In this document: positions 28,713 to 53,939 of the stretch, in pieces | Numbering within the stretch: the stretch's first letter is position 1 | Layout: every line of letters begins with the position of its first letter | Source: Eubacteriales bacterium | Lineage (GTDB): Bacteria; Bacillota; Clostridia; Oscillospirales; CAG-382 | Direction of reading: 5' to 3' | NCBI GenBank assembly: GCA_045651025.1 | Contig: JAZRRU010000078.1 | Location: 1-59,076, forward strand | Length of the DNA: 59,076 nucleotides | Notes under the pieces: generated by a model | Told to the model about the DNA's origin: nothing | Databases searched by the model: none | What the model saw: only the letters and a program-made list of their open reading frames with translations | Translations under genes and position numbers: made by a program

Positions 28713-28715
28713 GTT

Positions 28716-36576: not shown

Positions 36577-36605
36577 TTGACATTCAAAAACATTTGGAGT
36601 ATACT
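36577..36605 (+). promoter_or_regulatory. Promoter TTGACA-17-TATACT for the giant gene
   Basis: Hexamers at 36577-36582 and 36600-36605. RBS AAAAGGAG at ~36660 and GTG start at 36678. Confidence 0.6.
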
Positions 36606-36677
36606 CATTTTGAATAGGTTTATCCTGTTCTTACTATCGAAATAAAAAAAGATAACATAAAAAAGGAGCAAATTATC

Positions 36678-39600
36678 GTGAAAAGAACACTTGCTTTAGC
36701 GTTGGCTTTGATCATGCTCGTTACCATGATCCCTGCCACGATGCTCTCCGCGTTCGCACGTGGTAAAGGTGTGTATGCAAATACTACCGAAAACCAGCTG
36801 ATCGACCGCGCGGACGGCCAGTATATTCCCGAAACTGTCGTTGTTGACGGCGTTTTGGATGATACCGGCTGGCGAGAGGATGACTGGAACCGTGTAAGTT
36901 CCGAAAACGGAACCTGGAACGTCCAGTATCCCGAGAAAGACCTTGGTTTTTCTTACAAATACAACATAAGAAAGGATTACTACTACCTTTACGGCGCGTT
37001 GTCTGTTCCCACGAACACGACGGGTCTTGTTACCGTTTGGTTGAACGACGGTACTGAAGTCGGTGAATATACCGACGTCTTTACGTTCGACATCACGGGC
37101 GAGGCGCTTTCTGACGGCGTTGCTGCATACGAAGGTAACGGTAAATGGACTCGTAAGACTGCGGGCGGTGCTGTCATCACGGATAGCTCCGAATATTTCT
37201 ATGAGCAGTCGAAGGTCGTCTTCAAGCAGGACGGCGAGAATACGGTAATCGAGTTCAAATCTCTCCTCGCGGACTTCTGCCCCGCGAAGAATCCTACCGT
37301 TAAATATTTCGTTTCGGTTGATGTTAAGGGTAGTGACGAATCCCTCTATCACCCGATGATCGATATCAAAGAGCCCGATGGTTACAATCGTGACTCTTAT
37401 TTCCCTGCGCTCAATAAGCCCGATTCTTGGCCCTCCAAGTACGCGGGCAAGATCGACGCTGACGATATCATGGGTATCGGCGACGATTCGTTCCCCTCTG
37501 CGGTTACTATCGACGGCAAGTTCGACGAAGCGACCTGGGCAATGCATACCGACTTCTACAGCAGATGGTATGAAAGAACGAACCTTCCTAACTATAAGGA
37601 TAACGTAGACTACAATAAGCCCTACGCCGACCTTACCTATAACTCGCTTCCTTACAGCGATTATTACCAGACGGGCGCAGAGCATGACGTTCGCGTTGCA
37701 GACGACTACATCTACGGTGCATCCCTCGTTCTTAACAGCTATGGCGATGGAGTTGCGTACGTACGTTTCAACCTCTATGACGATCTTGGTAACGGTCAGT
37801 ACAACCAGGTTTCTATCTACCTTGCAGGTAACGGAAACAATCTTTCGAGCGCTATCGCTACCTGGTTTACGGGTGGTGCGGAAAATGCAACTGCAGGATC
37901 GTTCTGGAACATCGGCATGGATGCAGGTACCGTTACCGTAGGTGCAAATCTTTACTCCTTTGAGTTCAGAATCGACAGATCGTTCGGTCGCGGATTCATT
38001 CCCGACTACTATGACTTCTCTGTTGCAGTAAACACCAACGGTAGATACTGGGGCTGTGCAAACGAGAGCAACGACGGTAATAATGAGACCGCAGATAACA
38101 CCGGCGGTTACAAAGAACACCATCCTCCGTACGCAAACAGTGCGGACGAAATCGCTGCGCTCAAGAGATCTTACTATCCTGTTCACCACTTCAGCAATGC
38201 TCTCGGCGAGTTCTATAAACCCTACACGACCTACACTCCCGACGGTTACCTCGGCGTAAAAGCATGGCCGGGCTTGACCTTCTCGGCAGGCGGACCTGTC
38301 AGCGGTGACTGGATCTCTAAGGATAACTCGAGCCGTGTTGACGGTGTTCATTACATGCACTCTCTCCGCGCTGACTACGAGTTCGTTTACGGTGCTTTCC
38401 ACGTTCAGTTCGACAAAGAAAAGCTCAGCGGTAAAAACTCGGAATGGAAGCACGGTACGAAGGAACACCCCGCGGGCGGTGACGTGTTCTCTCTTTGGAT
38501 AGCGAACCCGAAGGATACCTCTTATGCTCACATCATCCGTTATGACGTTTGGACCTACATTGACGAGAATGGAAAGGTTCAGGCGCGTATCGGCGGTTAT
38601 AACGGCAGAAACAACGACGTTGGCGGCGTTGGCTCTTACGGTTACAGAGACAACTACAAAGCGGCGTTTGTTGACAGAAGCGAGGAAGACGGTACTTACG
38701 CGTTTGAATACCGCATCCCGCTCAACTCGATAGGTATCGAGCTTAACATCAACGAAGATACAACCGAGAAAGCAACTGACTCTCAATCGACCGAGATATT
38801 CAAGTATTACACTTCGCTTTCTGTTGTTGCTCCTGATAATACCAGCACCAACAAAGACGAGGTTAAATACGCTGCAATTTCTTGGCCTAAGTCGGGTAAC
38901 CATTATACCGACTCTGCGACCGGCGCTACCTACAACGTCTATCCCGACGGCTGGGGAACTCCTTTTGCAAAGACCACCATCGGTACTTACAACAACTTCG
39001 GCTTCAACGCAGCTGCTACTGCGATGGTTCTCAGATATCAGGACGTTATCCGTTCGATCGAGCCCGATGGACGTATCGTTGAAGAACAGCGTCTTGATCT
39101 CGATCATATCGACTGGACTAACGCTGAATACCGCGAAGCGCCCGTTTACGGCGAACCTATCGGCGGTTATGAGAAGTTCTACGTTGGCTCTGAAAACGTA
39201 TATCTCTGTGCACGTATTGACGGCGACGTTTCCGCATACAACACGAGATTCATTTTCTGGGCAAAGAACAGCGCAAACGAAATTCATAAGTATGAATTCT
39301 ACTATGACGGCGCGAACTGCAAGCTCGCGATCGACGGCGTAACTCAGAGTGCAGACCGTACGTTGTATCAGTATGACGTAACCAGCACGAACGGTGCGAC
39401 CAGCTTCGAAGCAATTATCGACATCGATACCTTCGGCGGCAGAGACGGATTTGAATACTTCCTCGAAATTCAGCAGAAGACCGAGAAGGAAGTTCTCAAC
39501 CGCGTATCTCCGAAGATCGAGCTTCCCGAGATTGCCAACTATGCGTCGAACATCAACTCCGTAAACGCATGGTATACCAACGCAGGCACCGTTAAGGACC

Positions 39601-42600
39601 TCATCCACTTCCCCCGTGAAGAAATCACGGTTGACGGTGACCTTAACGACAACGGTTGGGACAAGAACGAATGGATCTACGTTTCGACCGACATCAACGC
39701 GAACATGCAGGAAACAGGTCTTATCAACACTCTCTTCAAGACCGACTTCTGGTATCAGATCCGTGTAGATGACGAAAACATGTACGTTGCAGCGGTTATC
39801 AACTACTCCGATTCTCTTGATCCGGCTGACGGCGTTACTCCGCTTGCTGCTACAAAGGAAAACATCATCGCTCAGCTTCCCGGCTTCCGTATCTGGCTCA
39901 AGAGCGGTAACAACGGTTCGAGCGTTGCGAACGGTGATTCCAACACCTATACTCAGTACTATGACATAAGGTTGAACGCAAAAGGCGAAGTTCAACTCCG
40001 CTCTGACGTCAACCTTCTCCCCACTTACGCAAACAACACCCGTCCTCTTTACAACAAATATTACGTTCCCGTTACTCCCGCCAAGGACGAAAACGGAAAG
40101 TATATCACGGACGCAAACGGCAAGTATATCTATACTTCCGCAACCAGCACGAGCGATCCTGTTGTAGACACAATAAAAACGCTTTTAGACGGTGAAACCG
40201 ATCTTTACGGTTACACCAAGTACATCATCGACGAAAGCGAAGCAAACAAGAACGGTACCGAGAGCCAGGTTCTCAAGGGTGAGGAAATCAACCCCGAAGA
40301 CTATGAGTCTGCAGGCATGCTCGCGGGCAAAAAAGAAGGCGTTGAAGCAGGTATCATGCGTTTCGGTAACGATGCCGGCTATATCAACTCCTTCAACAAC
40401 GGTAGACCTCAGACTCTTACCGAAAGCTCGACCGTAGTTGAATTTAAGGTTGGTCTCGACGAGTTTGGCGGACACGAACAGTTCCAGTATCTCGTTACCA
40501 GCTCCTGCCAGGCGGATTGGGGCGGATCGAGAACCACGATGTACCCCGCAATTACCTCCGAGGTCGACTCTACCGACTCTTACTTCCACTATTACTATCC
40601 TTACTGGCACTGGGAAGACGGCACCGCAATCACGATGACCGAATCTCTCCGTGCTGACTGCACTCTTCTTACCTACAAGCGCCCCGTTATCACTCTCGGT
40701 GCAAAGGTAAGCAAGACTTATATGTACCAAGGCAAAGAAGTTAGCGCTTTGCGTATGGGCGGCCTTTGGGAAGAACAGTACATACGTAAGGTAAAAGAAC
40801 TCGCGGCAACGGAAAACAACAAAGAAGGTTACGTTGCATCGACGGGTAACTATACCGACTATTGGGACGTCAAGGAAATGGGTATGATCGTTCTCCCGAC
40901 GTACCTTGTTGGCGAGAACAAGAAAAACGACGTTGAGCATCAGGGCAAGTATGATCTCTTCCGAGACAGCGCCCGTATCCAGTGGAGAGATGCCGACGGT
41001 ATAGTTAGATGGGCGGGTAATGATGAAATAAATTATCCGAACAGTAACTTCGCTGACTACAAGAACTTTGCGTTCTACGTAACTCTCGTTAAGATCCCGA
41101 CGGATGTGAATATGTGCTTCCGCGGATTTGTTAACTATTATGACACGCCCAACGGCGCACCCTCTTACTATGACGTTATCTTCGAAAGAAGTATCGACAT
41201 GGTTATCGATGCTGCAAAACGCACGGATGACGATGATGAGGGCGAGGAAGATAACGAGCTTCCCGGCGGCGAATTCTCGCGTGATGACGAAAGCGGATTT
41301 ACCGGAACCGACGGCTCCGATTACGAAACCTCTCGCGATGAATCCGACGAATCTGACGAATCCGACGAATCCGACGTTTCCGAGGACGTAGGTTATATCG
41401 TTGACGAAAACGGCGTTGCGCTCGATATTGCGTTCCCGACGCATTACTACGAAGGTTACAAGTCGCTCGTTTATGCTGATATTAACGGTCTCGGCTATTC
41501 TGTAACGAACTTCCACGAAACTTATCGTTCCGATGACCAGACCTACTTCCGTCAACTCTATCTCGTAAAAGATGGCGACGGACACTTTGAGGTAATGAAC
41601 ATTTCCGAACCCGGCGATACGTCGTATCTCGGCTGGTCGGTCGGTAAGGACGTTATGGTTGTTTCGGTTCACGAAAACCATCCGAACTTTTCAACCTTTG
41701 CATCGTATCAGAAGGGCGATCACCTCAAGCTCAGCGGTGCAAGCGACTTCGATACGATCGCAGGAACAGGCGAGGATGCAGAAATTTCCGCAACCCTCAA
41801 CAAGGTTATCGCATGTAACCACTCTGCGGGCTTCTCCGAAGCAACCTGTACCGAAGCTGCAAGATGTAAGACCTGCGGTAAGGAAGACGGTGCACCTCTC
41901 GGACACGACTATCCGATCGGCGCAAAGCCCACCTGTACCGAATCCGTTAAGTGTTCTCGTTGTGGTTATGAAAGAGACGCAGCTCTCGGACATGCCGCTT
42001 CCGAATACAAGCACGATTCCGAAAAGCATTGGAAGGTTTGTGAACGCGTAATCGACGGTGTCGTTTGCGGTGCAACGTTTGATTCCGCAACTCATACCTT
42101 CGTTGACGGTAAGTGCGAATGCGGATATGAATGCACGCACACCGACACTCTCGTTAAGGTTGAAGCAAACGCTCCCACCTGTACCGAAGACGGTAATATC
42201 GAATACTACAGATGCTCTGTTTGCGGATGTCTCTATGACGACGCTGACGGCACGAATAAACTCACCGCAGAAGACGTTGTTGATCCTGCACATGGACACG
42301 AGTATAACAACGACGGCGTAAACTGCGATCACTGCGGCAAGTCGAAGAATCTCCCGATCCAGATAACGATCGCACAGCCCACGATTGATTACGGTCCGAG
42401 CTATAAGAACAGCGTTCAGATCTTCGCTTGGACATCCGGTAGCCAGCAGATTCGTGCATATACTTACAAAGATACAGATGACACCTCGACTTACTATCCG
42501 TACACGGATACCTATTCGAGCGCAGCAGAAAACGGTCCTTGGACCCTCATCGCTCTCGATAAGGTCGAAAGCGAATATATCGGCGTTGACGGCGGTACTT

Positions 42601-45600
42601 GGGCAGTAACTGCTATTGACACGACCGGCTCTGCTTACATGGACGACACAAGCTTCTGGTGGGCAGGCGTTAAGACTACCGATGGTGTGACCACCGAAAG
42701 AATGGTTGTCGCAATTCCTCAGAACCTTCTTACCGACACCACCTACGGCTACGTTAAGGATCTCGCTCTCGGAACGAAGCTCGTTTGGGCTGAAGGCGAA
42801 GGAAATATTGACGGAACTGTCAAAAAGTACTCTGAAGCAGGCGGATCCGCTTCTGACTACATGATGAACGCTTCGCTCAAGCTCGCATGTACTCACGAAA
42901 AGAAGAACGCAGCTACTTGCGAAAAACCCGAGACCTGCGTTGCTTGTGGTGAAGAAACCGCACCCGCTCTCGGTCACTCCTACACCACCTACGTTTCCGA
43001 CGGCAACGCAACCTGCGGAGTTGACGGAACGAAGACCGCAACTTGTGACAACAACTGCGGTACCAAGTCCACTATTGAAGACGAAGGTTCTGCAAAAGAA
43101 CACGTTTATAACTACGTATCCGACGGCAACGCAAAATGCGACGTCGACGGTACGAAGAGTGCATACTGTGCAAACGGTTGCGGTAGTAAATCTACCGTAC
43201 CCGACGAGGGCTCTGCGCTCCAGCACGTTGAAGGTGAACCCGTTTATAACGGCGATGCAACCTGTAACGCTGACGGTACTTACACAATCAGCTGTACGCT
43301 CTGCGGACAGTCCAGATCTGTCACCGCAGTTGGAACTCAGCTCTCGCACAGCTTCACTAAATTCTACAACGACAACAACGCAACCTGTACGGGTGATGCT
43401 ACCGAAACCGCAACCTGCGATCACGGATGCGGAGCGAAGCAGACCAACACCCTCACCGGCACGGCTCTCGGTCACGAATTCGGCGCGGGCTGGTCGAAGA
43501 ACGAAGAAGGACATTTCCACAAGTGCGTACGTTGCCCTGAAATCAGCGATGAAGGCGTTATCCCCCATAACTTTGAGCTTCAGGCAGACGGCGTAAACGA
43601 AAAATGTACTGATTGCGGTTACGAAAAGAACCACGTTCATTTCTTCGGCGAAGTTGTTGATCAGATCGATCCTACCTGTACCGCTAACGGTCAGAAGGCA
43701 TACTATGTCTGCTCCAGCTGCGGTAACTGGTTCAACGGCAACGATGCAAGTGCAGACGGCTTTGCTGAATATGAAGGCAAGGCGATGGATCAGGATATCA
43801 TCCTCGCTGCACTCGGTCATAGCTTCACTACCTACGTATCCGACGGTAACGCTAAGTGCGAAACCGACGGTACAAAGACCGCTGAGTGTGACAACGGATG
43901 CGGCGAAACCAAAACCGTAACCGATGTCGGCTCGAAGACCGGTCACAGCTTCACCCAATATAAGTCGAACAACGACGCAACCTGTACCAAAAACGGTACC
44001 GAAACCGCGATCTGTGACAACTGTGATGAGTTCAACGTCCGTGAAGAAGTTGACTCGGCAAAGGGTCACAGCTTCAAGAACTACGTATCCGACGGCAACG
44101 CAACCTGCGAAGCTGACGGTACGAAGACTGCTGAGTGTGAAAACGGATGCGGCGAAACCAACACTATTGCTGACGACGAGTCCGCACTCGGTCACAGCTT
44201 TACGGTATACACGTCTAACGGCGATGCAACCTGTACCAAAAACGGTACTGAAACCGCGAACTGCGACCGCGAATGTGGCGAAACTCACACTCGTGAAGAT
44301 GATGAATCCGCACTCGGTCACAGCTTCACCAACTACGCACCCAACAGCGACGCAACCTGTACCGAAAACGGTACTGAAACCGCTAACTGCGACCGCGAAT
44401 GTGGCGAAACTCATACTCGTGAAGACGATCAATCCGCTCTCGGTCACAATATGGCTCCTGCGACCTGTACCGAACCTTCGAAGTGTCAGCGCGACGATTG
44501 CGACCACACCGAAGGCGAAGCACTCGGACACAGCTTCACCACCTACGAATCCGACAATAACGCTAAGTGCGAAGTTGACGGTACTGAAACCGCTAAGTGC
44601 GACCGCGAATGTGGCGAAACTCACACTCGTGAAGATGAAGGTTCCGCACTTACTCACGAATTTACTAACTACGTAACCTCCAAAGAAGCAACCTGTACCG
44701 AAAACGAAGAAGTAACCGGCACCTGTAAGCACGGTTGCGGAACCACCGATACCAAGGTTGTTGAAAACTCTGCTCTCGATCACGAATGGACCGAAGCAAC
44801 CTGTACCGAACTTTCGAAGTGCGAGCGTTGCGGCGAAACCACCGGCGAATTGAAAGAGCATAACATCGTAAACGGCAAGTGTACCGTCTGCGGACTTGGC
44901 GACAAGACCGTTGCATACGTACCGCTTGACCAGCGTCCCGTTAACCTTGACAGAGTTGAATATCTCGCGGGCTCTGCTGACTTCGAAATCAGAACTCCTG
45001 CTTTTGAAGATATCGTAACCTGGATGGATACGAACGTCGATGCTCGCGGCGGCACTGCTCACGGCGGTAACCCCGTAAACATTCTTGCATGGCTCAAACA
45101 GCAGGAAAAAGAAGGCGTTAACAACTACGTCATCTCGCTTGACCAGGCACTCTCCGGCGGTCTTGTAGAATCCCGCCGTCAGACCGGTTACCACAGCGCA
45201 AGCGATTGGGGTGTTACAACCACCACGTTTGAGGGCTCTGCAGAACAGGCGATGATCAACTTCATTGCTGAACTCGCAAGCAATCCTCAGAACAAGGTCG
45301 TTCTCGTTGAAACCGTTATGCGTCTCGCTCCTGAGACCGAATATAAGGGCTTCAACGGAAATATGTACGAAGCATTCCGTCAGTACGGCGAAATCCAGAG
45401 ACAGGAATTCTCCGCTGACTCGATGACCATCGGTCAGGCAACGATCGATAAGATATACGATGCATACGGTAAGGACGCAAACGGCGCTACTCTCGGCACC
45501 ACGTACAACGGCATCAACGTTGCTACGAATAGCGGCTATACCAGCGCAGACTTCTTCAATGCTCGTAAGCGTAAGCTCGAGTTGATGACTGCTCTCGTTC

Positions 45601-48600
45601 AGACCGAAGGTATGGACGGCATCAAGCATCTCTTCATCGGCGTTGACGACTCCTCGTCTGCTCACAACATCCAGACCAACGACAGAACCTACTACACGAA
45701 GCTCCTCGAAGGCAAGCCCTACAGCTATGACTTGTTCGGCGGTGCTGACGAACTCGGTATGCTTGGTATGGCACGTCTCTCCGCAGACTACTACGGATAC
45801 GACGACAATGCTAATAAGATCGATGCAAACGTCACCTACTTCGGTGAAGGTTACACCGGTCAGGCAGACCACTACGACTTTGAAACTCTCGAGCAGAACG
45901 TCGACAAGCACCTTGCTGCTCTCAACATCAACAAGGTTGATCGTGAAGACGTTAACACGCTCCAGATCCTCATTCTCGCACGTGAAACTACCGATATCGA
46001 AAGCCAGGCAACCGATGCTCTTGCACATGCACTTATCGATAAGCTCCGTGCGAACATCAAGGCAGGCATTCCTACCTGCGTAATCGACGCTTCGAACAAC
46101 TGGTCCAACAACAAGAGAATCTTCTCTGACGCGTTGTTCTGGGATTTCGAAGGCACAGCAAACGGCGCAGAAGGTCCGTTCGATATCGCACAGACGCTCT
46201 CGATCAGCTGCTGGAACACCGTTGGTAATACGGTTGGTCTCGGTCTCTCGAGCGCAGTCGGACGTTATGCATACCTCACGAAGACGGATGAAGTCACCGA
46301 AGACTCCAACCAGGCATTCGTTCAGGGCTTCACCTTCGCTCTCGTTAAGGATATGGCATACCGTGCACATACCTCGGGTAACGTAACCGATGCATCCGTC
46401 GACTACGTTGCAGGATACAACAACTTCCCGTTTGACGGTCTCGGCAACGGCGAAAATGAATGGGATACTGCAAACAGAATCCTCAAGAAGCTCAACGCTC
46501 GCAACACCATCCTCGGTAAGAAGGGCGAAAACGGCTTCAACAAGGTACTCTACAGCCGTGTAACGATCGATCCTAACTCGGTTGAATGGACTTGGGACCG
46601 TGACTTCGAATGTAACTTCGACGTTGTAGTTGGTAACACCTCCGACGCAACGGTTGATCCTAACTTCACCGAAGCAACGATTCAGTTGACCCACGGTAAC
46701 CCGTCCTACTCGACTTACGGTTACAATTATCATTACCTCAGCAATACCTATGTATTCGCTGCAGATGATTACATCTCGGCTCCCGACATTTCCGGAACTA
46801 CTGCAGCCGGCTTCCAGTGGTGCTATAAGGCATTGCTCGAATATGACGACGTTGCAGGCAGATATAGAGTTGTTGCAACCGATGGAAACGGCAGTACCTA
46901 TTATGCAAACTGGCACGTCGGTGTTGACAGAATTGTAATTATCAGCCACGCTGATAATGGATCTTCTCTCATCCCGAATCTTAAAGTTAATGAGTATCTC
47001 GAGCTCACGGGTACAACCCACGAGGCACTCAAGGATCTTGATGACGATGCTTTGACCGGCGTCAAGCTCACGAAGGTTATGAACTATCAGGCAGCGGAAA
47101 TCACCGCTCCTGAGGTTCTCACCCCCGTCCTCAAGGCACCCTCTGCGGCGAATAAACTCACCGTAGCATACGTTCCTCTTGATGACAGACCCGTTCACAC
47201 GGATCGTGTCGTCCTCACTGCAGAAGAAGCGGGCATCGAACTCTTGATGCCCGAAGAAGAGGATTACAAGACTTATCTTGCAAATTCCTCTACCGGTGAA
47301 AAGGGACATGGCGGTAATACCGCGAACATCCTCGCTTGGCTTGAAGAACAGGAAGCAAGCGGCATTGATTACTATGTAATCGCGCTCGACCAGGTATTCT
47401 CCGGCGGTCTTGTTAACTCCCGTTACAGTGACCCGTCGTTTGATGGTCAGCTTTCTGCGCAGGATTTGAAGACTGCGAACTTCCTCGTTGACCTCGCGAA
47501 GAACAACTATGTTGTTTATACCGATACGATCATGCGTCTTGCGGCAACGTATCCTTATAAGGATCACGATGCAAACACCTATACCGCTCTTCGTGCATAC
47601 GGTCACTATGACCACTTGCCTCTCGAAGAAGGTAGGGTTGGCAGTATCGCAACCCTCGACCTCGAACACGTAATCAGCGGTTACCGTTACGGCGATAATG
47701 GTGTTTATGGTCTTTACAGAGGCGGTACGATCGACGGTGCAACCGGATCGGTTTCCGACGACATAATCAAGGGCTATCTCGGTGCTCGTGAGCGTAAGCT
47801 CAGAATCACCGACTATATGCTCAGAAATGCAGGCGCGAACATCAACCATTACTATATTGGTATGGACGACTCGTCTTCCGGTGAAAACATTCAGGCGAAC
47901 GAAAAGAGATATCTCGATATGATCATCAGAAAGACCGGCTCGAATGCTCTCGTATTCGCCGGTGCGGACGAAATGAGCGTTATGGGTATCTCCGCAATGA
48001 CCAACCTTTATATTAAGGAAGATGCAACAAAGATTCCTGCTGCAGACGGCTGGACTGCTACCAAGGTTCCCGTAAACGTTGTTTACTTCGGTGACCGCAC
48101 TTGGCAGGCAGACGCTTACGATAACGGTTCTCTCGGAACTGCAATCGACCTCCACCTCAAGTCGCTTGATGCATATCAGGTTGCTGAAACTCACAAGCTC
48201 GAACCCGGTGTAATTCAGCTTGTTGTTGTTGGTCGTGGTACCGAAAAGGTACACTTTGCAGGATCCGACACCGCTCTTGCACAGACGCAGGTTGCAGGTT
48301 CGAAGGCGAACGCAATTGCTGCTGCGGATTATATTGATGAACAGCTCGATGCGAACAGACCTGTTGCAATCATCGACGTTTCCTTCTGGAACGCAATCCA
48401 CCTTAACTTCGTTGTTGAGGCGATGAGAAACAAGGGCATCTTCGATAGACCTGACTTCAACGAAATCCTCGGCTACAGCACTTGGAACACCGCAGGTAAC
48501 GCAATCGGTCTTGCAATGGGTCAGGCATTCGCACGTTACAACTACCTCATGAATGCTACCGTTGTTACCAAGGATTCGAACCTCGGATTCCTCAAGCTGC

Positions 48601-48977
48601 TCGCTTACTCCTTCGTTAAGGATTCGGCTTACAGAACCAACTCCTTTATCAAGGATGCTAACGGAAATTATTGGTCGATGGACACTTCTTCGGCGAAGGC
48701 AATCAGCTGTGGCACTGTAATCTACAACACTGCCGGCTTCACCGGTAACGAATTCTTGAACTACGTCAATAACAGCACCGAGATGCTTCTTGGCGGTTGT
48801 GTATCCTCGGATTACGATTATAACCACAACGTTTCGATCCATACTCCTGTATGGCCCGCAAACTGGGGTCCCAGAAGCTTCGAATGCTGGTTCACTGCAG
48901 AAGCAACTTCTGATGAACCTACCGAACGTGGTTCCGGTGATGGAATCATCCTTCCTGACGAAGAATTCAACCAGTAA
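36678..48977 (+). CDS. Giant (4099-aa) secreted multidomain protein: CBM9/DOMON-like modules, acidic linker, ~24 Cys3-His mini-modules, three copies of an unknown ~140-aa domain, two DUF4127-like domains
   Basis: A single uninterrupted ORF with a GTG start and signal peptide KRTLALALALIMLVTMIPATMLSAFA. There are several 'VDG.LDD.GW' modules (aa ~50-1500) and an acidic linker DDDDEGEEDNE...SDESDESDESDVSED (nt 41226-41387). Cys-rich regions lie at nt 41814-42340 and 42888-44894. DUF4127-like signatures 'VAYVPLDQRPVN ... ISLDQALSGGLVESR' start at nt 44910, and 'VAYVPLDDRPVH ... IALDQVFSGGLVNSR' start at nt 47163. There is no C-terminal anchor or sortase motif. A strong terminator follows. Confidence 0.9.
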   Translation: MKRTLALALALIMLVTMIPATMLSAFARGKGVYANTTENQLIDRADGQYIPETVVVDGVLDDTGWREDDWNRVSSENGTWNVQYPEKDLGFSYKYNIRKDYYYLYGALSVPTNTTGLVTVWLNDGTEVGEYTDVFTFDITGEALSDGVAAYEGNGKWTRKTAGGAVITDSSEYFYEQSKVVFKQDGENTVIEFKSLLADFCPAKNPTVKYFVSVDVKGSDESLYHPMIDIKEPDGYNRDSYFPALNKPDSWPSKYAGKIDADDIMGIGDDSFPSAVTIDGKFDEATWAMHTDFYSRWYERTNLPNYKDNVDYNKPYADLTYNSLPYSDYYQTGAEHDVRVADDYIYGASLVLNSYGDGVAYVRFNLYDDLGNGQYNQVSIYLAGNGNNLSSAIATWFTGGAENATAGSFWNIGMDAGTVTVGANLYSFEFRIDRSFGRGFIPDYYDFSVAVNTNGRYWGCANESNDGNNETADNTGGYKEHHPPYANSADEIAALKRSYYPVHHFSNALGEFYKPYTTYTPDGYLGVKAWPGLTFSAGGPVSGDWISKDNSSRVDGVHYMHSLRADYEFVYGAFHVQFDKEKLSGKNSEWKHGTKEHPAGGDVFSLWIANPKDTSYAHIIRYDVWTYIDENGKVQARIGGYNGRNNDVGGVGSYGYRDNYKAAFVDRSEEDGTYAFEYRIPLNSIGIELNINEDTTEKATDSQSTEIFKYYTSLSVVAPDNTSTNKDEVKYAAISWPKSGNHYTDSATGATYNVYPDGWGTPFAKTTIGTYNNFGFNAAATAMVLRYQDVIRSIEPDGRIVEEQRLDLDHIDWTNAEYREAPVYGEPIGGYEKFYVGSENVYLCARIDGDVSAYNTRFIFWAKNSANEIHKYEFYYDGANCKLAIDGVTQSADRTLYQYDVTSTNGATSFEAIIDIDTFGGRDGFEYFLEIQQKTEKEVLNRVSPKIELPEIANYASNINSVNAWYTNAGTVKDLIHFPREEITVDGDLNDNGWDKNEWIYVSTDINANMQETGLINTLFKTDFWYQIRVDDENMYVAAVINYSDSLDPADGVTPLAATKENIIAQLPGFRIWLKSGNNGSSVANGDSNTYTQYYDIRLNAKGEVQLRSDVNLLPTYANNTRPLYNKYYVPVTPAKDENGKYITDANGKYIYTSATSTSDPVVDTIKTLLDGETDLYGYTKYIIDESEANKNGTESQVLKGEEINPEDYESAGMLAGKKEGVEAGIMRFGNDAGYINSFNNGRPQTLTESSTVVEFKVGLDEFGGHEQFQYLVTSSCQADWGGSRTTMYPAITSEVDSTDSYFHYYYPYWHWEDGTAITMTESLRADCTLLTYKRPVITLGAKVSKTYMYQGKEVSALRMGGLWEEQYIRKVKELAATENNKEGYVASTGNYTDYWDVKEMGMIVLPTYLVGENKKNDVEHQGKYDLFRDSARIQWRDADGIVRWAGNDEINYPNSNFADYKNFAFYVTLVKIPTDVNMCFRGFVNYYDTPNGAPSYYDVIFERSIDMVIDAAKRTDDDDEGEEDNELPGGEFSRDDESGFTGTDGSDYETSRDESDESDESDESDVSEDVGYIVDENGVALDIAFPTHYYEGYKSLVYADINGLGYSVTNFHETYRSDDQTYFRQLYLVKDGDGHFEVMNISEPGDTSYLGWSVGKDVMVVSVHENHPNFSTFASYQKGDHLKLSGASDFDTIAGTGEDAEISATLNKVIACNHSAGFSEATCTEAARCKTCGKEDGAPLGHDYPIGAKPTCTESVKCSRCGYERDAALGHAASEYKHDSEKHWKVCERVIDGVVCGATFDSATHTFVDGKCECGYECTHTDTLVKVEANAPTCTEDGNIEYYRCSVCGCLYDDADGTNKLTAEDVVDPAHGHEYNNDGVNCDHCGKSKNLPIQITIAQPTIDYGPSYKNSVQIFAWTSGSQQIRAYTYKDTDDTSTYYPYTDTYSSAAENGPWTLIALDKVESEYIGVDGGTWAVTAIDTTGSAYMDDTSFWWAGVKTTDGVTTERMVVAIPQNLLTDTTYGYVKDLALGTKLVWAEGEGNIDGTVKKYSEAGGSASDYMMNASLKLACTHEKKNAATCEKPETCVACGEETAPALGHSYTTYVSDGNATCGVDGTKTATCDNNCGTKSTIEDEGSAKEHVYNYVSDGNAKCDVDGTKSAYCANGCGSKSTVPDEGSALQHVEGEPVYNGDATCNADGTYTISCTLCGQSRSVTAVGTQLSHSFTKFYNDNNATCTGDATETATCDHGCGAKQTNTLTGTALGHEFGAGWSKNEEGHFHKCVRCPEISDEGVIPHNFELQADGVNEKCTDCGYEKNHVHFFGEVVDQIDPTCTANGQKAYYVCSSCGNWFNGNDASADGFAEYEGKAMDQDIILAALGHSFTTYVSDGNAKCETDGTKTAECDNGCGETKTVTDVGSKTGHSFTQYKSNNDATCTKNGTETAICDNCDEFNVREEVDSAKGHSFKNYVSDGNATCEADGTKTAECENGCGETNTIADDESALGHSFTVYTSNGDATCTKNGTETANCDRECGETHTREDDESALGHSFTNYAPNSDATCTENGTETANCDRECGETHTREDDQSALGHNMAPATCTEPSKCQRDDCDHTEGEALGHSFTTYESDNNAKCEVDGTETAKCDRECGETHTREDEGSALTHEFTNYVTSKEATCTENEEVTGTCKHGCGTTDTKVVENSALDHEWTEATCTELSKCERCGETTGELKEHNIVNGKCTVCGLGDKTVAYVPLDQRPVNLDRVEYLAGSADFEIRTPAFEDIVTWMDTNVDARGGTAHGGNPVNILAWLKQQEKEGVNNYVISLDQALSGGLVESRRQTGYHSASDWGVTTTTFEGSAEQAMINFIAELASNPQNKVVLVETVMRLAPETEYKGFNGNMYEAFRQYGEIQRQEFSADSMTIGQATIDKIYDAYGKDANGATLGTTYNGINVATNSGYTSADFFNARKRKLELMTALVQTEGMDGIKHLFIGVDDSSSAHNIQTNDRTYYTKLLEGKPYSYDLFGGADELGMLGMARLSADYYGYDDNANKIDANVTYFGEGYTGQADHYDFETLEQNVDKHLAALNINKVDREDVNTLQILILARETTDIESQATDALAHALIDKLRANIKAGIPTCVIDASNNWSNNKRIFSDALFWDFEGTANGAEGPFDIAQTLSISCWNTVGNTVGLGLSSAVGRYAYLTKTDEVTEDSNQAFVQGFTFALVKDMAYRAHTSGNVTDASVDYVAGYNNFPFDGLGNGENEWDTANRILKKLNARNTILGKKGENGFNKVLYSRVTIDPNSVEWTWDRDFECNFDVVVGNTSDATVDPNFTEATIQLTHGNPSYSTYGYNYHYLSNTYVFAADDYISAPDISGTTAAGFQWCYKALLEYDDVAGRYRVVATDGNGSTYYANWHVGVDRIVIISHADNGSSLIPNLKVNEYLELTGTTHEALKDLDDDALTGVKLTKVMNYQAAEITAPEVLTPVLKAPSAANKLTVAYVPLDDRPVHTDRVVLTAEEAGIELLMPEEEDYKTYLANSSTGEKGHGGNTANILAWLEEQEASGIDYYVIALDQVFSGGLVNSRYSDPSFDGQLSAQDLKTANFLVDLAKNNYVVYTDTIMRLAATYPYKDHDANTYTALRAYGHYDHLPLEEGRVGSIATLDLEHVISGYRYGDNGVYGLYRGGTIDGATGSVSDDIIKGYLGARERKLRITDYMLRNAGANINHYYIGMDDSSSGENIQANEKRYLDMIIRKTGSNALVFAGADEMSVMGISAMTNLYIKEDATKIPAADGWTATKVPVNVVYFGDRTWQADAYDNGSLGTAIDLHLKSLDAYQVAETHKLEPGVIQLVVVGRGTEKVHFAGSDTALAQTQVAGSKANAIAAADYIDEQLDANRPVAIIDVSFWNAIHLNFVVEAMRNKGIFDRPDFNEILGYSTWNTAGNAIGLAMGQAFARYNYLMNATVVTKDSNLGFLKLLAYSFVKDSAYRTNSFIKDANGNYWSMDTSSAKAISCGTVIYNTAGFTGNEFLNYVNNSTEMLLGGCVSSDYDYNHNVSIHTPVWPANWGPRSFECWFTAEATSDEPTERGSGDGIILPDEEFNQ
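43809..44783 (+). repeat. In-frame tandem 126-nt (42-aa) repeats inside the giant gene
   Basis: The period was verified from ctcggtcac at 44187, 44313 and 44439. The unit is SFTxYxSxxxATCTxxGTETAxCDxxCGETxTxEDxxSALGH. Neighbouring copies 44187-44312 and 44313-44438 are nearly identical over their last ~85 nt. Confidence 0.85.
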
Positions 48978-49000: not shown

Positions 49001-49036
49001 CAAGCAGTTGCCTATTTGGGCAACTGCTTGTTTTTT
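49001..49036 (+). terminator. Rho-independent terminator of the giant gene
   Basis: A perfect 12-bp stem caagcagttgcc / ggcaactgcttg with a 6-nt loop, followed by T6. Confidence 0.85.
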
Positions 49037-49055
49037 GCATGAGATAGTTCTATAT

Positions 49056-49124: not shown

Positions 49125-49240
49125 TTATCGTATCCGCAGTATTAAAAGGCAGGTTCGTTTTTGTGGATTTTTCGTTCGCATATTGACAAAAACCGTGCAA
49201 TATAATAAAATGGACTCAAACAGAAACGGAGGATTTTGAT

Positions 49241-49837
49241 ATGGAATACATCATTCGCGTTGAAAAAGAGATCGACTTTTCCCGCGCCGAAAAGGCGATG
49301 ATCTCGAACTATAAATGGACCGAGGGCTACGCTCCGAAAGCGTATGGCGAGCTCATCTACGTTGAGGATAAGGGCTTTGCGCTTCGTATGACGGCATTCG
49401 AGGAGAACCCGAAAGCGGTCTATACCAAATATGACGAACCCGTCTACAAGGACAGCTGTCTCGAATTTTTCGTAAGCTTCAACCTCGACAACGGCATGTA
49501 TATGAACTTTGAGATGAACGCAAACGGCGCGTTTCTCTCCGCGGTCCGTACCGACCGTAAGAACAAGACCGAGATTGACAAGCTCGCTCCGCTCCCCGAG
49601 GTAAAACCGTTCAAAGGCGACGGATTCTGGGGCGTTGAGACATTCTTCTCGCTTGATTTTGTCGAAAAGACAGCAGGGAAGTCCTCATTCGCGCGCGGCG
49701 AGAGCTTCAAAGGCAATTTCTACAAATGCGGTGACGAGACCGAGATACCTCATTTCGGTATGTGGTCACCCGTCGGAACCGAGAACCCCGACTTCCACCG
49801 TCCCGAGTTCTTCGGAACGCTCACGATTGAGAAATAA
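49241..49837 (+). CDS. Carbohydrate-binding family 9-like (CBM9_2/DOMON-like) protein, no signal peptide
   Basis: DSCLEFFVSF...NFEMNANGAFL...WGVE.F..L...F.GNFYKCGD...H matches my memory of the stand-alone CBM9-like family. RBS GGAGG. Confidence 0.7.
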   Translation: MEYIIRVEKEIDFSRAEKAMISNYKWTEGYAPKAYGELIYVEDKGFALRMTAFEENPKAVYTKYDEPVYKDSCLEFFVSFNLDNGMYMNFEMNANGAFLSAVRTDRKNKTEIDKLAPLPEVKPFKGDGFWGVETFFSLDFVEKTAGKSSFARGESFKGNFYKCGDETEIPHFGMWSPVGTENPDFHRPEFFGTLTIEK

Positions 49838-50317: not shown

Positions 50318-50394
50318 TGGTGTGGATGAATGGACTTGAACCAACGACCCCTTGCATGTCAAGCAAGTGCTCTAACCAACTGAGCTACACCCAC
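50318..50394 (-). tRNA. tRNA-Val (anticodon GAC), CCA encoded
   Basis: Hand fold of GTGGGTGTAGCTCAGTTGGTTAGAGCACTTGCTTGACATGCAAGGGGTCGTTGGTTCAAGTCCATTCATCCACACCA. It has D-arm GCTC/GAGC, anticodon stem CTTGC/GCAAG with loop TTGACAT, T-loop TTCAAGT and discriminator A. There is one U-U mismatch in the T stem. An upstream TTGATT-17-TAGAAT promoter is plausible. Confidence 0.78.
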
Positions 50395-50525: not shown

Positions 50526-52541
50526 TTATCTTTTGCCGGGGCGTCCGCCCATACCGCCGGTACCGAAGACGAGGGTTACCATTTTTATTTCCGCCAAGGT
50601 ATTACCGCCGTCGATTTTCGTGTTGCGCGCAAAGCCGTTTTCATCAGCGTTTTCTACCGTACCGCCTGCGACGAGGGTATAGGTGTTGCCTGCTTGAATT
50701 TCGGGTGCGGAAATGACCGCCGACGAATAGTTTTTCGGGGGAGCGAACGAAACGATCACTCTGCCGTCGCTGTCGCAAAGCGAAAGAGGCGTTCCTGTGT
50801 TACAAGCAGAGAAGCTCGTGCAAATCGTGCCCTGGTTTTCGGCGTTCGTAAATCCCTGTGCCATACCCGAGCTTCCGAGAGCGATGAAGACACCGCCCTT
50901 TACGGTTGCTCCCGACTGACAGTCAAGCGCGCCGTTGCCGTTGTTCGTCGGTCCGCTTACAAGCGTTACACCGCCCGATACGGTTATCGTACCGTTCGAG
51001 TCAATGCCGTCGCCCAAGGCGTTAACGAGGACATTACCGCCCGAAATAATAATTTCGCCGACACCGTTGCCGAACATATCGCCGCCCATACCGCCACCCA
51101 TGCCGCCGGGCTTCGATCCGCTCGGTCTGCTTGCGCCTGCTCCGCCGCCGTGGTCACCGCCGCCGGGGTTGAAGCTTGTGTCGGGTCTCTGCGGTTTTTG
51201 ACCGCCTGAGCCCTCGGGGGGAGTCATGCCGTCCTGACTCGGGGGCTGTTGACCGCCGAAACCTTCTGGGGGAGTCATACCGCCTTGGTTCGGATTTTGC
51301 TGACCGCCGAGGTTATCGTTCGGTCTGCCGAAGTTCGGGTTCTGCGTTCCCGAGCCATCGTTGCCGCCTGCCGCGTTGAGTCCGTCGTCGGAAGCGGTTA
51401 TGTTGATTATACCGCCCGTGATAACGATCTTGCTCGCTTCGAGCCCTTCATAGCTTTTCTTGATGTTTATATTTCCGTTTTCGATTCCGAGGTCGAGGTC
51501 GGCGTGGATTCCGTCGTCCCCGCTCGAAAGCTCGAAGTTACCGTTTTTGATTGAAATGGAGTTGTTCGCGTGGATAGAGTCGTCCTGCGAGTTGATTTTG
51601 AAGTTGCCTCCGTTGATGATAACGTCGTTGACTGCTTTTAGTCCTTTCGCCGGCTCGTCGGAGTTGATTCCGCCGAGGCGGTTGTCCGCACCGCCGTTTG
51701 CGGTCACGGTGATATCCGCGGATTCGATCTTGAGAACAGTCTCCGCCTGAATACCGTCGTTGCCCGAGGTTATATTGAGCTTTCCGCTTTCGATATATAC
51801 GAAACCGCGCCCTTCGTCCTCGGCGTTATCGGAACGGATTCCGTCAGTGCCCGCGTCGACTTTTATCTTGGCATCGGAAATCTTGACGCAATCCTTACCG
51901 TCGATGCCGACACCGATCGAGAAAGCATTAAGCTCGCAGGAAAGGACGCGGATATCGTCTTTTGAGACGATTGCGTGTTTTGTGTTGCCCTTGACGGTGA
52001 GCGTGCCTTTCCCGTTCACGGTAAGGTCGGCACGCGAGAATATCGCACCGTCAACGTTCGTATCGCCGTCCTGAAGAGAATAGCCCGTTCCGTCGGAAAC
52101 AGTGTTGGCAGTACCTTCTTTTGCAGTGAGGAAAACCTTATCGCCCGACTTTATGAAAATGCAGGGGCCTTTCGAGTTCGAGATATTTGCGTTGTCGAGG
52201 ACTATCATGACCTTCTCGGAATCACCCACGGAGACGGTAATCATCTTGTCGGTTATATCGCCCGAGAGGATATAGGTTCCCTCGGAAGTGATTTCGATCA
52301 CGTCGCCTTTATCGACCGCGTTTTTCACGTCCTTTTGCTCAAACGTGCCCTCGCGGTCGCGATCGGAGAACGAGAAGTCCATTCCCGAAATATCTTTAAG
52401 CGAAATCGAAGCGCTTTCCGTCTTCACCTCCGAAACGTCCGAGTTATCATTTGAAACGTCGGGATTGTCGGCAGGAGCGCATGCGGAAAGGGAAAGGGCG
52501 AGAATTAAAATCACAGAAACGAAGCGCGAGAATTTGTTCAA
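50526..52541 (-). CDS. Lipoprotein with parallel-beta-helix repeats of the Cthe_2159 carbohydrate-binding type and an internal Gly/Pro/Gln/Met-rich tract
   Basis: Lipobox ILALSLSACAP. Repeated turns such as ITSGNDGIQA, SQDDSIHA, SSGDDGIHA and ASDDGLNA, interleaved with I.I.(N/G)G.(F/I).I strands. The low-complexity tract GGQQNPNQGGMTPPEGFGGQQPPSQDGMTPPEGSGGQKPQ...GGMGGGMGGDMFGNG is at nt ~51080-51360. Confidence 0.7.
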   Translation of the reverse strand: MNKFSRFVSVILILALSLSACAPADNPDVSNDNSDVSEVKTESASISLKDISGMDFSFSDRDREGTFEQKDVKNAVDKGDVIEITSEGTYILSGDITDKMITVSVGDSEKVMIVLDNANISNSKGPCIFIKSGDKVFLTAKEGTANTVSDGTGYSLQDGDTNVDGAIFSRADLTVNGKGTLTVKGNTKHAIVSKDDIRVLSCELNAFSIGVGIDGKDCVKISDAKIKVDAGTDGIRSDNAEDEGRGFVYIESGKLNITSGNDGIQAETVLKIESADITVTANGGADNRLGGINSDEPAKGLKAVNDVIINGGNFKINSQDDSIHANNSISIKNGNFELSSGDDGIHADLDLGIENGNINIKKSYEGLEASKIVITGGIINITASDDGLNAAGGNDGSGTQNPNFGRPNDNLGGQQNPNQGGMTPPEGFGGQQPPSQDGMTPPEGSGGQKPQRPDTSFNPGGGDHGGGAGASRPSGSKPGGMGGGMGGDMFGNGVGEIIISGGNVLVNALGDGIDSNGTITVSGGVTLVSGPTNNGNGALDCQSGATVKGGVFIALGSSGMAQGFTNAENQGTICTSFSACNTGTPLSLCDSDGRVIVSFAPPKNYSSAVISAPEIQAGNTYTLVAGGTVENADENGFARNTKIDGGNTLAEIKMVTLVFGTGGMGGRPGKR

Positions 52542-53206
52542 AGCGATTCACCTTCTTCTGCGGCTTCATAAATCGAGATTTCGAGGTTGCCGTTACGGCA
52601 TCGAAGCTCGTCGATGAGCTCTTTCGTCTGATTTCTGTTTTTGAGCTTTACGTTATAAGTAAGCTTGTAAAGCGATCCCATGTTTGAGGTTTTTGTTTTT
52701 ACGAGGCGTGAAGATTTCGTGTATTTCTTGAATATGTCGGAAAATGCGTCGGTGAAATGGAGCGATTCGGGAACGGTCACGTTAAGCGTCATAACTCCGT
52801 CGTTTCCGAAAGGGATAACCGAAAGCGCGACGAGAACCGCGCCGACGATAATCGTGAAAAGAATCGCAATTCCCACAAAACCGCCTGCACACGCAAGACC
52901 CGAGGTCATAGAGAGGAATATCGAAACGATATCCTTCGCTTTTCCGGGAACCGAACGGAAACGGACGAGGGAGAACGCGCCCATAACGGCGATGCCCGTT
53001 CCTACGTTGCCGTTGACCATCGTGATAACTGTCGAAACGATCATCGGAAGCAAAACGAGCGAAACGAGAAAGCTCTTCGTAGCGCCCGTGCTGAACGAGG
53101 CGCACGCCGCGGCGATTATACCGCAAATCAACGCACCCGCGATGCAGATGAGGTAGGCCTCGATCGAGAAGCCGTCTTTGATTACAGATTCAAACAGTGC
53201 AGACAT
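52538..53206 (-). CDS. DUF4956-family polytopic membrane protein
   Basis: It has 4-5 TM helices, the motif GAFSLVRFRSVPG..KDIVSIF, and a soluble C-terminal ~80-aa domain. It overlaps both neighbours (17 nt upstream, 4 nt downstream). Confidence 0.7.
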   Translation of the reverse strand: MSALFESVIKDGFSIEAYLICIAGALICGIIAAACASFSTGATKSFLVSLVLLPMIVSTVITMVNGNVGTGIAVMGAFSLVRFRSVPGKAKDIVSIFLSMTSGLACAGGFVGIAILFTIIVGAVLVALSVIPFGNDGVMTLNVTVPESLHFTDAFSDIFKKYTKSSRLVKTKTSNMGSLYKLTYNVKLKNRNQTKELIDELRCRNGNLEISIYEAAEEGESL

Positions 53207-53939
53207 ATTCTTTTTCTCCTTCGGGTTCGTAGGTTTCGATATTTAACGGCGAGAGGCTGGTGGAATCGAGGTAAGCTCTTCCGTATTTTGAAAAGGAAGA
53301 GGGGAGTATATTGAGCGCGTCAAGAGTGTTGGAGAGCCAGACAGGCATCGCGCCGTCGGTTTTGATCTCGAGGATATATTCACCCTTTTCGAGAACGGGT
53401 TTTCCGTGACTTCCGTGCTCAAGCGAAAGGTCGGTATCGCGGTAACGCACGTTTGAGTCGAACGTGACACGCAGGTTCGGCATATTTTTCACGAAATACG
53501 CCTCGCGCTCGTATGCGACAAGCATCCGCGGCTTCAGTTCGCCGTAGAAGTGCATCGCGTAGTCGATTTCGTTCATAATCTGTGATTCCTCGGGGCGCGC
53601 TCCGCTTTCGATATATTGCAACGCGCGCTCGAGCTTTGTGGAAATTCGGCGTTTATATACAACGCCTTTGAACTTTTTCTTTATTTCGAGGAACACCTTT
53701 GAGTCAACCGAGGGAGTTCCGTAGCTTCGGAGTCGGAGCTTTTCTTTGTAGGTCTTTGCCTCGAGCGAATTTCGTATGAGACGGAAGTCGTCCGTGTCGA
53801 GGTAGAGACTGCAGACCGTGCTGTTTTTGTGCGTGTCGGGAATAAGGCGGTCGGCGCAGAGGGATATGAGCGCTTCTTTTTCGGATTCGCTTATGCGATA
53901 TTTCTTTTCGATGCGCTTGAATACGTAAATATCCTTCAA
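53190..53939 (-). CDS. VTC-domain (CYTH/triphosphate-tunnel, polyphosphate-polymerase-like) protein
   Basis: TTG start 8 nt after GAGGAGG. Motifs FKRIEKKY, SLYLDTDDF, KEKLRLRSY, FLEIKKKFKGVVYKRR, YILEIK and C-terminal SFSKYG fit the tunnel beta-strand pattern of VTC/CYTH domains. Confidence 0.72.
   Translation of the reverse strand: MKDIYVFKRIEKKYRISESEKEALISLCADRLIPDTHKNSTVCSLYLDTDDFRLIRNSLEAKTYKEKLRLRSYGTPSVDSKVFLEIKKKFKGVVYKRRISTKLERALQYIESGARPEESQIMNEIDYAMHFYGELKPRMLVAYEREAYFVKNMPNLRVTFDSNVRYRDTDLSLEHGSHGKPVLEKGEYILEIKTDGAMPVWLSNTLDALNILPSSFSKYGRAYLDSTSLSPLNIETYEPEGEKEYVCTV

Follow-up and report, generated by a model that had tools for sequence, protein, structure and literature searches.

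Here, we explored the domain organization, evolutionary relationships and likely function of a giant protein encoded in a 59,076-nucleotide stretch of DNA (hereafter, the window) from a Eubacteriales bacterium (GTDB lineage Clostridia, Oscillospirales, CAG-382; contig JAZRRU010000078.1). The gene, at window positions 36678-48977 on the + strand, encodes a protein of 4099 amino acids (aa) that starts with a predicted Sec signal peptide, continues with a scaffold of six modules, denoted N1-N6, and ends with two copies of DUF4127, a conserved domain with an enzyme-like fold; between the scaffold and DUF4127 lies an insert in which a rare domain, denoted X, is interspersed with cysteine-rich mini-modules. 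We tentatively interpret the protein as a glycan-targeted secreted enzyme acting on cell-envelope-type glycopolymers, a reading to which we assign a probability of roughly 40%. The likeliest substrate would be an anionic glycopolymer, i.e., a peptidoglycan-associated polysaccharide, a teichoic-acid-like polymer or a secondary cell-wall polysaccharide, of neighboring bacteria or of the producer itself, with dietary fiber being less likely. We favor an envelope glycopolymer because a phage encodes a protein in which DUF4127 is joined to S-layer homology (SLH) repeats, because CHAP, GDPD, GH20 and SGNH domains occur as partners, because the many invariant arginines of DUF4127 suit an anionic substrate, and because the genomic contexts are those of housekeeping genes.

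Layout of the gene and of the encoded protein

The features of the gene are listed below in window coordinates; the protein domains were delimited by self-comparison, profile comparison (hhalign) and hidden Markov models.

36577..36605, strand +: predicted sigma-70-type promoter, TTGACA-17 nt-TATACT (consensus score 11/12)
36663..36668, strand +: ribosome-binding site AAGGAG, 9 nt 5' of the GTG (direct sequence reading)
36678..48977, strand +: coding sequence, 4099 aa
36678..36758 (aa 1-27), strand +: Sec signal peptide, predicted cleavage AFA↓RG (from sequence form)
36759..37487 (aa 28-270), strand +: N1, CBM9/DOMON-like beta-sandwich module (AlphaFold2 model and Foldseek; Pfam negative)
37488..38237 (aa 271-520), strand +: N2, divergent N1-type module containing IDGKFDEATW (hhalign 70% to N1)
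38238..39029 (aa 521-784), strand +: N3, N1-type module (hhalign probability 94.6%)
39030..39614 (aa 785-979), strand +: N4, N1-type module (hhalign probability 98.5%)
39615..40544 (aa 980-1289), strand +: N5, extended N1-type module containing VDGDLNDNGW (hhalign 98.5%)
40545..41213 (aa 1290-1512), strand +: N6, distinct domain, unrelated to N1-N5 by hhalign
41214..41393 (aa 1513-1572), strand +: polyacidic linker (D/E 27/60)
41415..41810 (aa 1580-1711), strand +: X1, first copy of the rare ~140-aa domain
41811..42356 (aa 1712-1893), strand +: Cys block 1, Cys3His mini-modules
42357..42872 (aa 1894-2065), strand +: X2, divergent copy with insertions
42873..44903 (aa 2066-2742), strand +: Cys block 2, ~15 Cys3His units of 42 or 28 aa
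44904..46631 (aa 2743-3318), strand +: DUF4127 copy 1 (invariants PLDxRP, SGGL, DDS, GADE and WNTxGN present)
46632..47084 (aa 3319-3469), strand +: X3
47157..48902 (aa 3494-4075), strand +: DUF4127 copy 2 (invariant residues kept)
48903..48974 (aa 4076-4099), strand +: acidic 24-aa C-terminal tail
49001..49040, strand +: predicted intrinsic terminator (13-bp stem with 7 GC pairs, 4-nt loop, T-run)

Much of this layout had been anticipated in an earlier note made from the sequence alone: the two blocks of Cys3-His mini-modules (18 units match a regular expression), the three copies of a ~140-aa domain, mapped here to aa 1580-1711, 1894-2065 and 3319-3469, and the two DUF4127-like domains are all recovered. 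The polyacidic linker proposed there is present as well, its length being ~60 aa (1513-1572) instead of 54. The array of CBM9-like modules, which the note had extended to aa ~1500, has to be shortened: it stops at ~aa 1289, and residues 1290-1512 constitute the separate, conserved domain N6.

DUF4127, the candidate catalytic domain

DUF4127 (PF13552) is the sole Pfam match in the 4099-aa protein (326.5 bits against a cut-off of 27; E = 3.4e-97) and covers two stretches, aa 2743-3318 and 3494-4075. The two copies are 33% identical overall (28-47% in local alignments), and both keep the columns that are invariant in the domain, 30-37 in number (alignments of 37 and 11 sequences) and mostly Asp, Arg, Lys, Ser or Gly. 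These are D8, R10, R16, D79, S83-G84-G85, R90, R139, R158, R220, R222, K223, D247, D248, N258, D281, R453 and K481, with E282, H335 and W436-N-T438 being nearly invariant; the motifs retained in both copies are PLDxRP, SLDQxxSGGLxxSR, RxRK, DDS, GADE and WNTxGN, along with R139 and R158. The AlphaFold2 model of copy 1 (pLDDT 84.8, pTM 0.89) consists of three alpha/beta subdomains and a terminal beta-hairpin, and the invariant residues follow the C-terminal ends of the parallel strands, the usual place of the active site in such alpha/beta folds. No fold could be assigned to the domain: its best Foldseek match in the PDB (E = 5e-3, TM-score <0.2) is noise, and the matches at this level include alpha/beta hydrolases, TIM barrels, UPF0261 and solute-binding proteins.

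DUF4127 is widespread in Clostridia, where the proteins that contain it appear to be directed to the cell surface in all cases. The relatives that we collected (35 + 209) carry SLH domains, dockerins or an N-terminal signal that is often lipobox-like (LxxC), as judged by eye and by a crude test in which 84 of 106 were signal-like, and the domain is fused to GH20, GDPD, SGNH or F5/8C partners. From the conservation of residues and from the fusion partners, we infer a catalytic role for DUF4127. Three genes for lipoprotein-like, stand-alone forms of DUF4127 sit among housekeeping genes, one of them two genes downstream of murB, and none of the three loci contains an adjoining transporter gene, a sugar-utilization operon or an ABC-transporter operon. 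The idea that the lipoprotein-like forms are solute-binding proteins was accordingly rejected, with 0 of 3 loci lying next to transporter genes.

Comparison of the DUF4127 model with a viral structure library yielded one strong match, A0A346TNQ6 (E = 1.4e-18, TM-score 0.58), which tblastn and annotation identify as gp099 of Bacillus phage BC01, with an identical match in phage PBC6 (KT187252.1). This 693-aa protein (MH487649.1, 48750-50831), annotated as 'S-layer domain-containing protein', consists of a complete DUF4127 (Pfam E = 8e-98) with SLH repeats after it, has no signal peptide and falls into the PHROGs family phrog_20208, for which no function is assigned there. The layout resembles that of an endolysin, with an enzymatic and a wall-binding domain, and gp099 may be an unrecognized cell-wall-active phage enzyme. 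Herelleviridae phages of B. cereus encode such a DUF4127-SLH protein, which lacks a signal peptide.

The scaffold modules N1-N6

The motif V/IDGxLDDxxW is found at aa 56, 278 and 985 of the 4099-aa protein; DG-x-LDD-x-x-W is typical of the CBM9/DOMON-type superfamily. By hhalign, N1, N3, N4 and N5 are homologs of one another (probability 91-98.5%) and N2 is more weakly related (70%), whereas N6 and X show no hhalign relation to N1-N5. The AlphaFold2 model of N1, built from a 20-row alignment, is a beta-sandwich (pLDDT 79, pTM 0.83), and its closest Foldseek matches in the PDB are the CBM9 structures 1i82_A (E = 3.1e-4) and 7nwo (E = 4.6e-4), both with a probability of 1.00 and TM-scores in the range of 0.39-0.58. 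Next come DOMON-type proteins (7b04_C, 2ivf_C, 4zel, 6jt6), namely, NxrC, the ethylbenzene dehydrogenase gamma subunit, dopamine beta-hydroxylase and the cytochrome domain of pyranose dehydrogenase. Thus, as modeled, N1 has a CBM9-type fold, and N1-N5, perhaps together with N6, would bind carbohydrate.

Membership of the N modules in CBM9 at the sequence level was rejected. Pfam searches with ten segments of the protein (E<=10) returned nothing for N1-N6, X or the Cys blocks, including CBM9_1 and CBM9_2; searches with 20 N-type modules, 15 of them orthologous (E<=5), gave no CBM9 match and nothing recurrent; and hhalign comparison of each module with the CBM9_2 protein encoded elsewhere in the window gave probabilities below 1%, i.e., no detectable profile similarity. 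The CBM9/DOMON-like call of the earlier note therefore stands for the fold (Foldseek, 1i82 and 7nwo) and fails for the sequence (Pfam and hhalign). N6 has neither a Pfam match nor a PDB relative by sequence, and no other part of the scaffold is as well conserved in the protein family described below.

The X domain and the Cys3His blocks

Most of the cysteines in the 4099-aa protein (70 of 84) are concentrated within aa 1705-1895 and 2060-2745, in units of either 42 aa (H-x12-C-x9-C-x2/3-C) or 28 aa (C-x5-C-x2-C), and at least 18 units with one His and three Cys are captured by a regular expression. This pattern suggests zinc-ribbon-like mini-domains. When searched against PDB sequences, neither the Cys block nor the X profile produced anything significant.

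An exhaustive search of 1.84 billion representatives with an X profile made from five copies recovered 20 proteins at E<=1e-3. Five of these are giants of the N1-N6 family, and the remaining 15 carry a dockerin (6), F5/8C (5), cohesin (2), sortase (1) or DUF4127 (1). Given these dockerin, cohesin, F5/8C and sortase partners, X can be regarded as an extracellular accessory module, and the sequence comparisons point to a rare accessory module of clostridial surface or cellulosome-type proteins. Within the N1-N6 family, X usually adjoins DUF4127.

Such partners, as well as the fold of the scaffold modules, have to be weighed in the main alternative interpretation, under which the protein is a nutrient-harvesting carbohydrate-active enzyme (CAZyme), free or fiber-bound, for dietary plant or host (mucin-type) glycans, with the CBM9-like array binding the chain ends of xylan or cellulose and DUF4127 being an undescribed family of glycoside hydrolases, esterases or lyases. 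The ruminant-gut habitat is compatible with this possibility, and so are the match of N1 to the CBMs of xylanases, the many DUF4127 and X-domain proteins with dockerins or cohesins, the F5/8C (CBM32-like), GH20 and SGNH partners that are typical of glycan degraders, and the other dockerin proteins encoded by the same organism. However, the 4099-aa gene lies amid housekeeping genes, with no polysaccharide-utilization transporter or regulator nearby, and the stand-alone DUF4127 genes are likewise located outside sugar operons. Furthermore, plant fiber is an implausible substrate for the DUF4127-SLH protein of a Bacillus phage, the CHAP and GDPD partners point to cell-envelope polymers, and dockerins in this lineage are also found on proteases and leucine-rich-repeat (LRR) proteins. 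A role as a CAZyme for plant or host glycans appears rather unlikely to us.

A family of giant N1-N6 proteins

When the N-terminal 1485 aa and N1 were used as queries, ~30 proteins or loci, 1.5-4.3 kaa in size, were found to share the N1-N6 scaffold, with E-values of 1e-20 to 1e-93 for N1 and 1e-11 to 1e-102 for N6. The named sources are all metagenome-assembled genomes (MAGs) from the guts of sheep, yak and roe deer, labeled as Eubacteriales, Clostridia or Oscillospiraceae bacterium. The features common to the family are a signal peptide, a mature N-terminus of the form RGKGV..NQS..GQYIPE, N1-type modules and a terminal N6; the GTG start and signal peptide are kept in the orthologs L002, L003, L005 and L006. 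The start ..PA(T/S)x(L/I)(S/T)AFA↓RGKGV..NQS..GQYIPE is conserved in members that are otherwise ~30% identical, and this signal-peptide/mature N-terminus could be a dedicated processing or sorting signal. The earlier note had found the domain combination impossible to place; instead, the protein, albeit of unusual size, belongs to this unnamed and uncharacterized family, which is present in databases yet undescribed, its members being labeled only 'DUF4127 family protein'.

Beyond the scaffold, the family is variable. Some members stop after N6 and have no cargo, and in others (P0003, P0036, P0045, P0048-50, P0055, P0057 and L014) the scaffold leads into DUF4127, in some cases accompanied by X or F5/8C. 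P0055 (2894 aa) and P0057 (3010 aa) display N1-N6, DUF4127, X, (X,) and DUF4127, so that P0055 has the layout of the window protein minus the X/Cys insert. P0060, at 4349 aa, exceeds the window protein and carries five X-type stretches, CHAP (E = 1.4e-7) and DUF4127. The gene for P0050 is in tandem with a second family member of 2861 aa. The divergent members P0003 and P0050 share a downstream gene pair on the opposite strand (L001, 17230-19738; L025/L026, 15805-18310), which encodes a 458-aa protein without Pfam domains and a ~380-aa Amidohydro_1 protein, NagA-like in size and family; this pair was not found beside the 4099-aa gene of the window.

Three syntenic MAGs provide orthologs. In L003 (MAG contig JAZOSQ010000041.1), the same genes, encoding ThiI, IscS, RNase Y, YmdB, YajC and M29, lie upstream of an open reading frame (ORF) that has a GTG start and the same signal peptide and, with at least 3596 aa, reaches the end of the stretch read; its layout is N1-N6, X, Cys, X, Cys, X and DUF4127, with DUF4127 copy 1 missing. 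L002 and L005 show the same synteny as the window, with the ORF cut by contig ends. The X/Cys insert and two DUF4127 copies were seen together only in the window protein; it is this architecture that is new. The giant proteins of the window and L003 share 38-67% identity per domain, compared to 78-95% amino-acid identity for the flanking housekeeping proteins (76-96% across the three syntenic MAGs). Thus, the 4099-aa protein evolves fast, as surface-exposed proteins do.

These properties could also be those of a non-enzymatic structural or adhesive fiber, in which DUF4127 would be a ligand-binding domain comparable to a periplasmic-binding protein. Indeed, a very large, acidic, repeat-rich and fast-evolving protein (38-67% vs 76-96% for its neighbors) is typical of surface adhesins, several members of the family consist of the scaffold without cargo, and DUF4127, with its alpha/beta subdomains, is often lipoprotein-like and has solute-binding proteins among its noise-level Foldseek matches. 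Yet the ~30 invariant charged or polar residues at strand ends are more than binding proteins usually keep, the stand-alone lipoprotein-like forms have no ABC-transporter genes beside them, DUF4127 occupies the position of an enzymatic domain beside the SLH repeats of the phage protein and adjoins hydrolase domains in other proteins, and the 4099-aa protein has no anchor by which an adhesin would be kept on the cell. We consider a purely adhesive or structural role improbable.

Expression signals, secretion and integrity of the gene

The ORF list and translation show that positions 36678..48977 (+) contain one unbroken ORF of 4099 codons with a GTG start. The site at 36577-36605 is the top promoter-like site on the + strand of the region, its sole tie (11/12) being the site at 49183, which belongs to the downstream gene; similarly, the hairpin at 49001-49030, directly 3' of the stop codon, is the best terminator-like site on that strand. 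In total, consensus promoter and terminator matches in the region are not above those in shuffled sequence, so that only position and quality support the promoter and terminator assigned to the 4099-aa gene. The gene upstream encodes an M29 aminopeptidase, stops at 36326 and has a hairpin and T-run of its own after its end; hence, the 4099-aa gene looks monocistronic. We consider this a genuine gene that, judged from its predicted promoter and terminator, is transcribed independently.

The N-terminus, MKRTLALALALIMLVTMIPATMLSAFA followed by RG, resembles a Sec signal peptide in form, and aa 1-28 hold the sole hydrophobic 19-mer of the whole protein, which is strongly acidic (617 D+E vs 320 K+R). 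A motif scan detected no LPXTG-type motif ([LN]Px[TAS]G) anywhere in the 4099 aa, there is no C-terminal transmembrane segment or basic tail, the tail being acidic and devoid of a sorting signal, and Pfam, with DUF4127 as the only match, reported no SLH, dockerin or cohesin. Relatives and neighboring genes in the window do carry domains of the SLH, dockerin or cohesin type, unlike the 4099-aa protein. An NCBIfam search produced no match, and a PDB sequence search with the whole protein returned nothing significant. Three claims of the earlier note are borne out by these analyses: that the ORF is uninterrupted, begins with GTG and encodes a signal peptide (it translates without a stop and has a Sec-type N-terminus); that the gene has its own consensus promoter and a strong terminator (an 11/12 promoter and a terminator with a 13-bp stem); and that LPXTG, SLH, dockerin and C-terminal transmembrane anchors are missing (Pfam, motif and hydrophobicity scans).

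Given the size and the repeats of the gene, an artifact has to be considered, i.e., collapsed or chimeric repeats in the assembly, or a pseudogene that is not expressed. The DNA of the Cys repeats (42.9-44.9 kb) has a 126-nt period, contig ends often truncate the orthologs of other MAGs (L002 and L005), and the junction between Cys block 2 and DUF4127 copy 1 (~aa 2742, near 44.9 kb) was seen in no other assembly. By contrast, identity between copies of the Cys repeat is only 60-80%, and exact repeats reach at most 41 nt anywhere in the 12.3-kb gene, a divergence that makes a collapse artifact unlikely, such that repeat collapse was rejected; the best DNA repeat between the two DUF4127 copies is 74% over 116 nt, and GC content is uniform along the gene (0.48-0.52). 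Moreover, the 12.3-kb frame stays open through at least 9 domain types, each of which has intact homologs in other proteins, the independent assembly L003 shows a collinear ORF, at least 3596 aa long, that includes the X/Cys insert, every other domain junction also occurs in independent assemblies, and promoter, ribosome-binding site and terminator appear intact. Repeat divergence and the independent assemblies thus largely answer the concern of mis-assembly, and we regard an artifact or pseudogene as very improbable.

Other genes in the window

Directly downstream of the giant gene, at 49241-49837 (+), is the gene for the 198-aa CBM9_2 protein mentioned above (Pfam E = 2.5e-32), with no obvious signal peptide and with its own 11/12 promoter at 49183-49211. 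A cluster at 50526-53939 (-) encodes a Cthe_2159 carbohydrate-binding protein (671 aa), a DUF4956 protein and a VTC domain protein; beyond it, 54012-54977 encodes a WYL/WCX regulator. An Rfam match to the Gut-1 RNA motif (RF01706, 59 bits) adjoins a tRNA, and another tRNA lies downstream of the giant gene; the presence of the Gut-1 motif is in keeping with an origin from the gut.

28644-28716, 28764-28835 and 50321-50394, strand -: Gut-1 RNA motif and tRNAs (Rfam)

Two further genes encode proteins with dockerins. At 736-6087 (-), there is a 1783-aa secreted protein with an S8 subtilase, a dockerin, a cadherin-like domain and a C-terminal transmembrane segment, and at 26572-27855 (+), a 427-aa BspA-type LRR protein with a C-terminal dockerin. 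As the subtilase illustrates, other big surface proteins of this organism do carry anchors. According to these annotations, proteins other than CAZymes bear cellulosome-type docking components in this organism.

A proposed mode of action

Under the favored reading, i.e., a secreted enzyme acting on envelope glycopolymers, the signal peptide would be cleaved at AFA↓RG, and the five CBM9/DOMON-fold modules together with N6 would bind a polysaccharide surface. The N-terminal array might also hold the protein on the cell wall, a possibility raised by the lack of any other anchor; the candidates for such non-covalent wall binding are N1 and N6, both strongly conserved. The acidic linker and the ~20 probably Zn-stabilized Cys3His mini-modules, interspersed with X, would form an extended spacer, and the two DUF4127 copies, each with an adjoining X, would be the catalytic cargo. 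In the modeled secondary structure, invariant Asp, Glu, Arg and Lys residues are placed at the C-terminal strand ends of the three alpha/beta subdomains, where they might contribute to the active site.

Several observations weigh against this interpretation. The 4099-aa protein contains no recognized peptidoglycan hydrolase domain, Pfam and NCBIfam having revealed none of the muralytic kinds (CHAP, amidase_2/3, GH25, GH73, NlpC/P60 and similar); the CHAP fusion occurs in a single relative, P0060; and the phage DUF4127-SLH protein itself falls into a PHROGs family with no assigned function. The dockerin fusions, CBM9-like modules and F5/8C partners suit the degradation of plant or host glycans equally well. 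DUF4127 has no solved relative among PDB sequences when searched with its profile and no significant one among PDB structures by Foldseek, and a literature search found no papers on DUF4127 or PF13552 and no described activity. A metagenome scan with the junction between Cys block 2 and DUF4127 copy 1 found no close relative. Finally, the case for catalysis consists of conservation and fusion partners, and Zn binding, carbohydrate binding and signal-peptide cleavage are all predicted.

A broader proposition, which we consider doubtful, is that DUF4127 represents a new class of cell-envelope glycopolymer hydrolase used by Clostridia, in lipoprotein-like, SLH, dockerin and giant-scaffold forms, and by Bacillus phages, in the DUF4127-SLH form, and that the N1-N6 proteins are a polymorphic family of secreted bacteriolytic or necromass-harvesting enzymes. 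If this were the case, the family would combine a CBM9-like targeting scaffold with exchangeable cargo (none, DUF4127, CHAP or F5/8C), and the window protein, with its Zn-ribbon-like stalk, would be the most elaborate version. Should DUF4127 prove to be active on cell walls or glycans, it would constitute a new enzyme family that bears on gut microbial competition, envelope turnover and fiber degradation, and could supply phage or bacterial lytic modules of a new type. For now, the 4099-aa protein is another addition to the large, modular, secreted proteins of uncultured gut Firmicutes, and would be a moderate surprise to a specialist. Nevertheless, ~95% of it lies outside any characterized family; N6, the rare X domain and the Cys3His repeat add three further modules for annotation; and the most interesting lead is DUF4127, a conserved, surface-targeted domain with an enzyme-like fold and a phage counterpart.

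Comparison with known systems

The modeled fold of N1 resembles CBM9, as in Xyn10A of Thermotoga maritima (1i82) and in 7nwo, and in both cases, tandem modules are found on a secreted protein; the window modules differ in having no Pfam CBM9_1 or CBM9_2 match. With phage endolysins and Gram-positive autolysins, the protein shares the logic of combining binding modules with putative catalytic modules, although it is ~10 times larger, appears to be Sec-secreted and lacks SLH, SH3 and LysM. In size, repeats, acidity, fast evolution and predicted extracellular location, it is similar to giant Gram-positive surface proteins and to cellulosomal scaffoldins, and the relatives of its X domain occur on dockerin and cohesin proteins, as in cellulosomal scaffolds; it differs from LPXTG adhesins, SLH proteins and scaffoldins in lacking LPXTG, SLH, cohesin, dockerin, a lipobox and a C-terminal transmembrane segment. 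The clostridial DUF4127 giants (P0055, P0057, P0003, P0036, P0060 and L003) share with the window protein the signal peptide, the N1-N6 scaffold, the X domain and DUF4127, both copies of which are full-length in the window protein. Among these, L003 occupies the same chromosomal locus and contains the same X/Cys insert. Identity of the window protein to the closest relatives is only 38-67% per domain.

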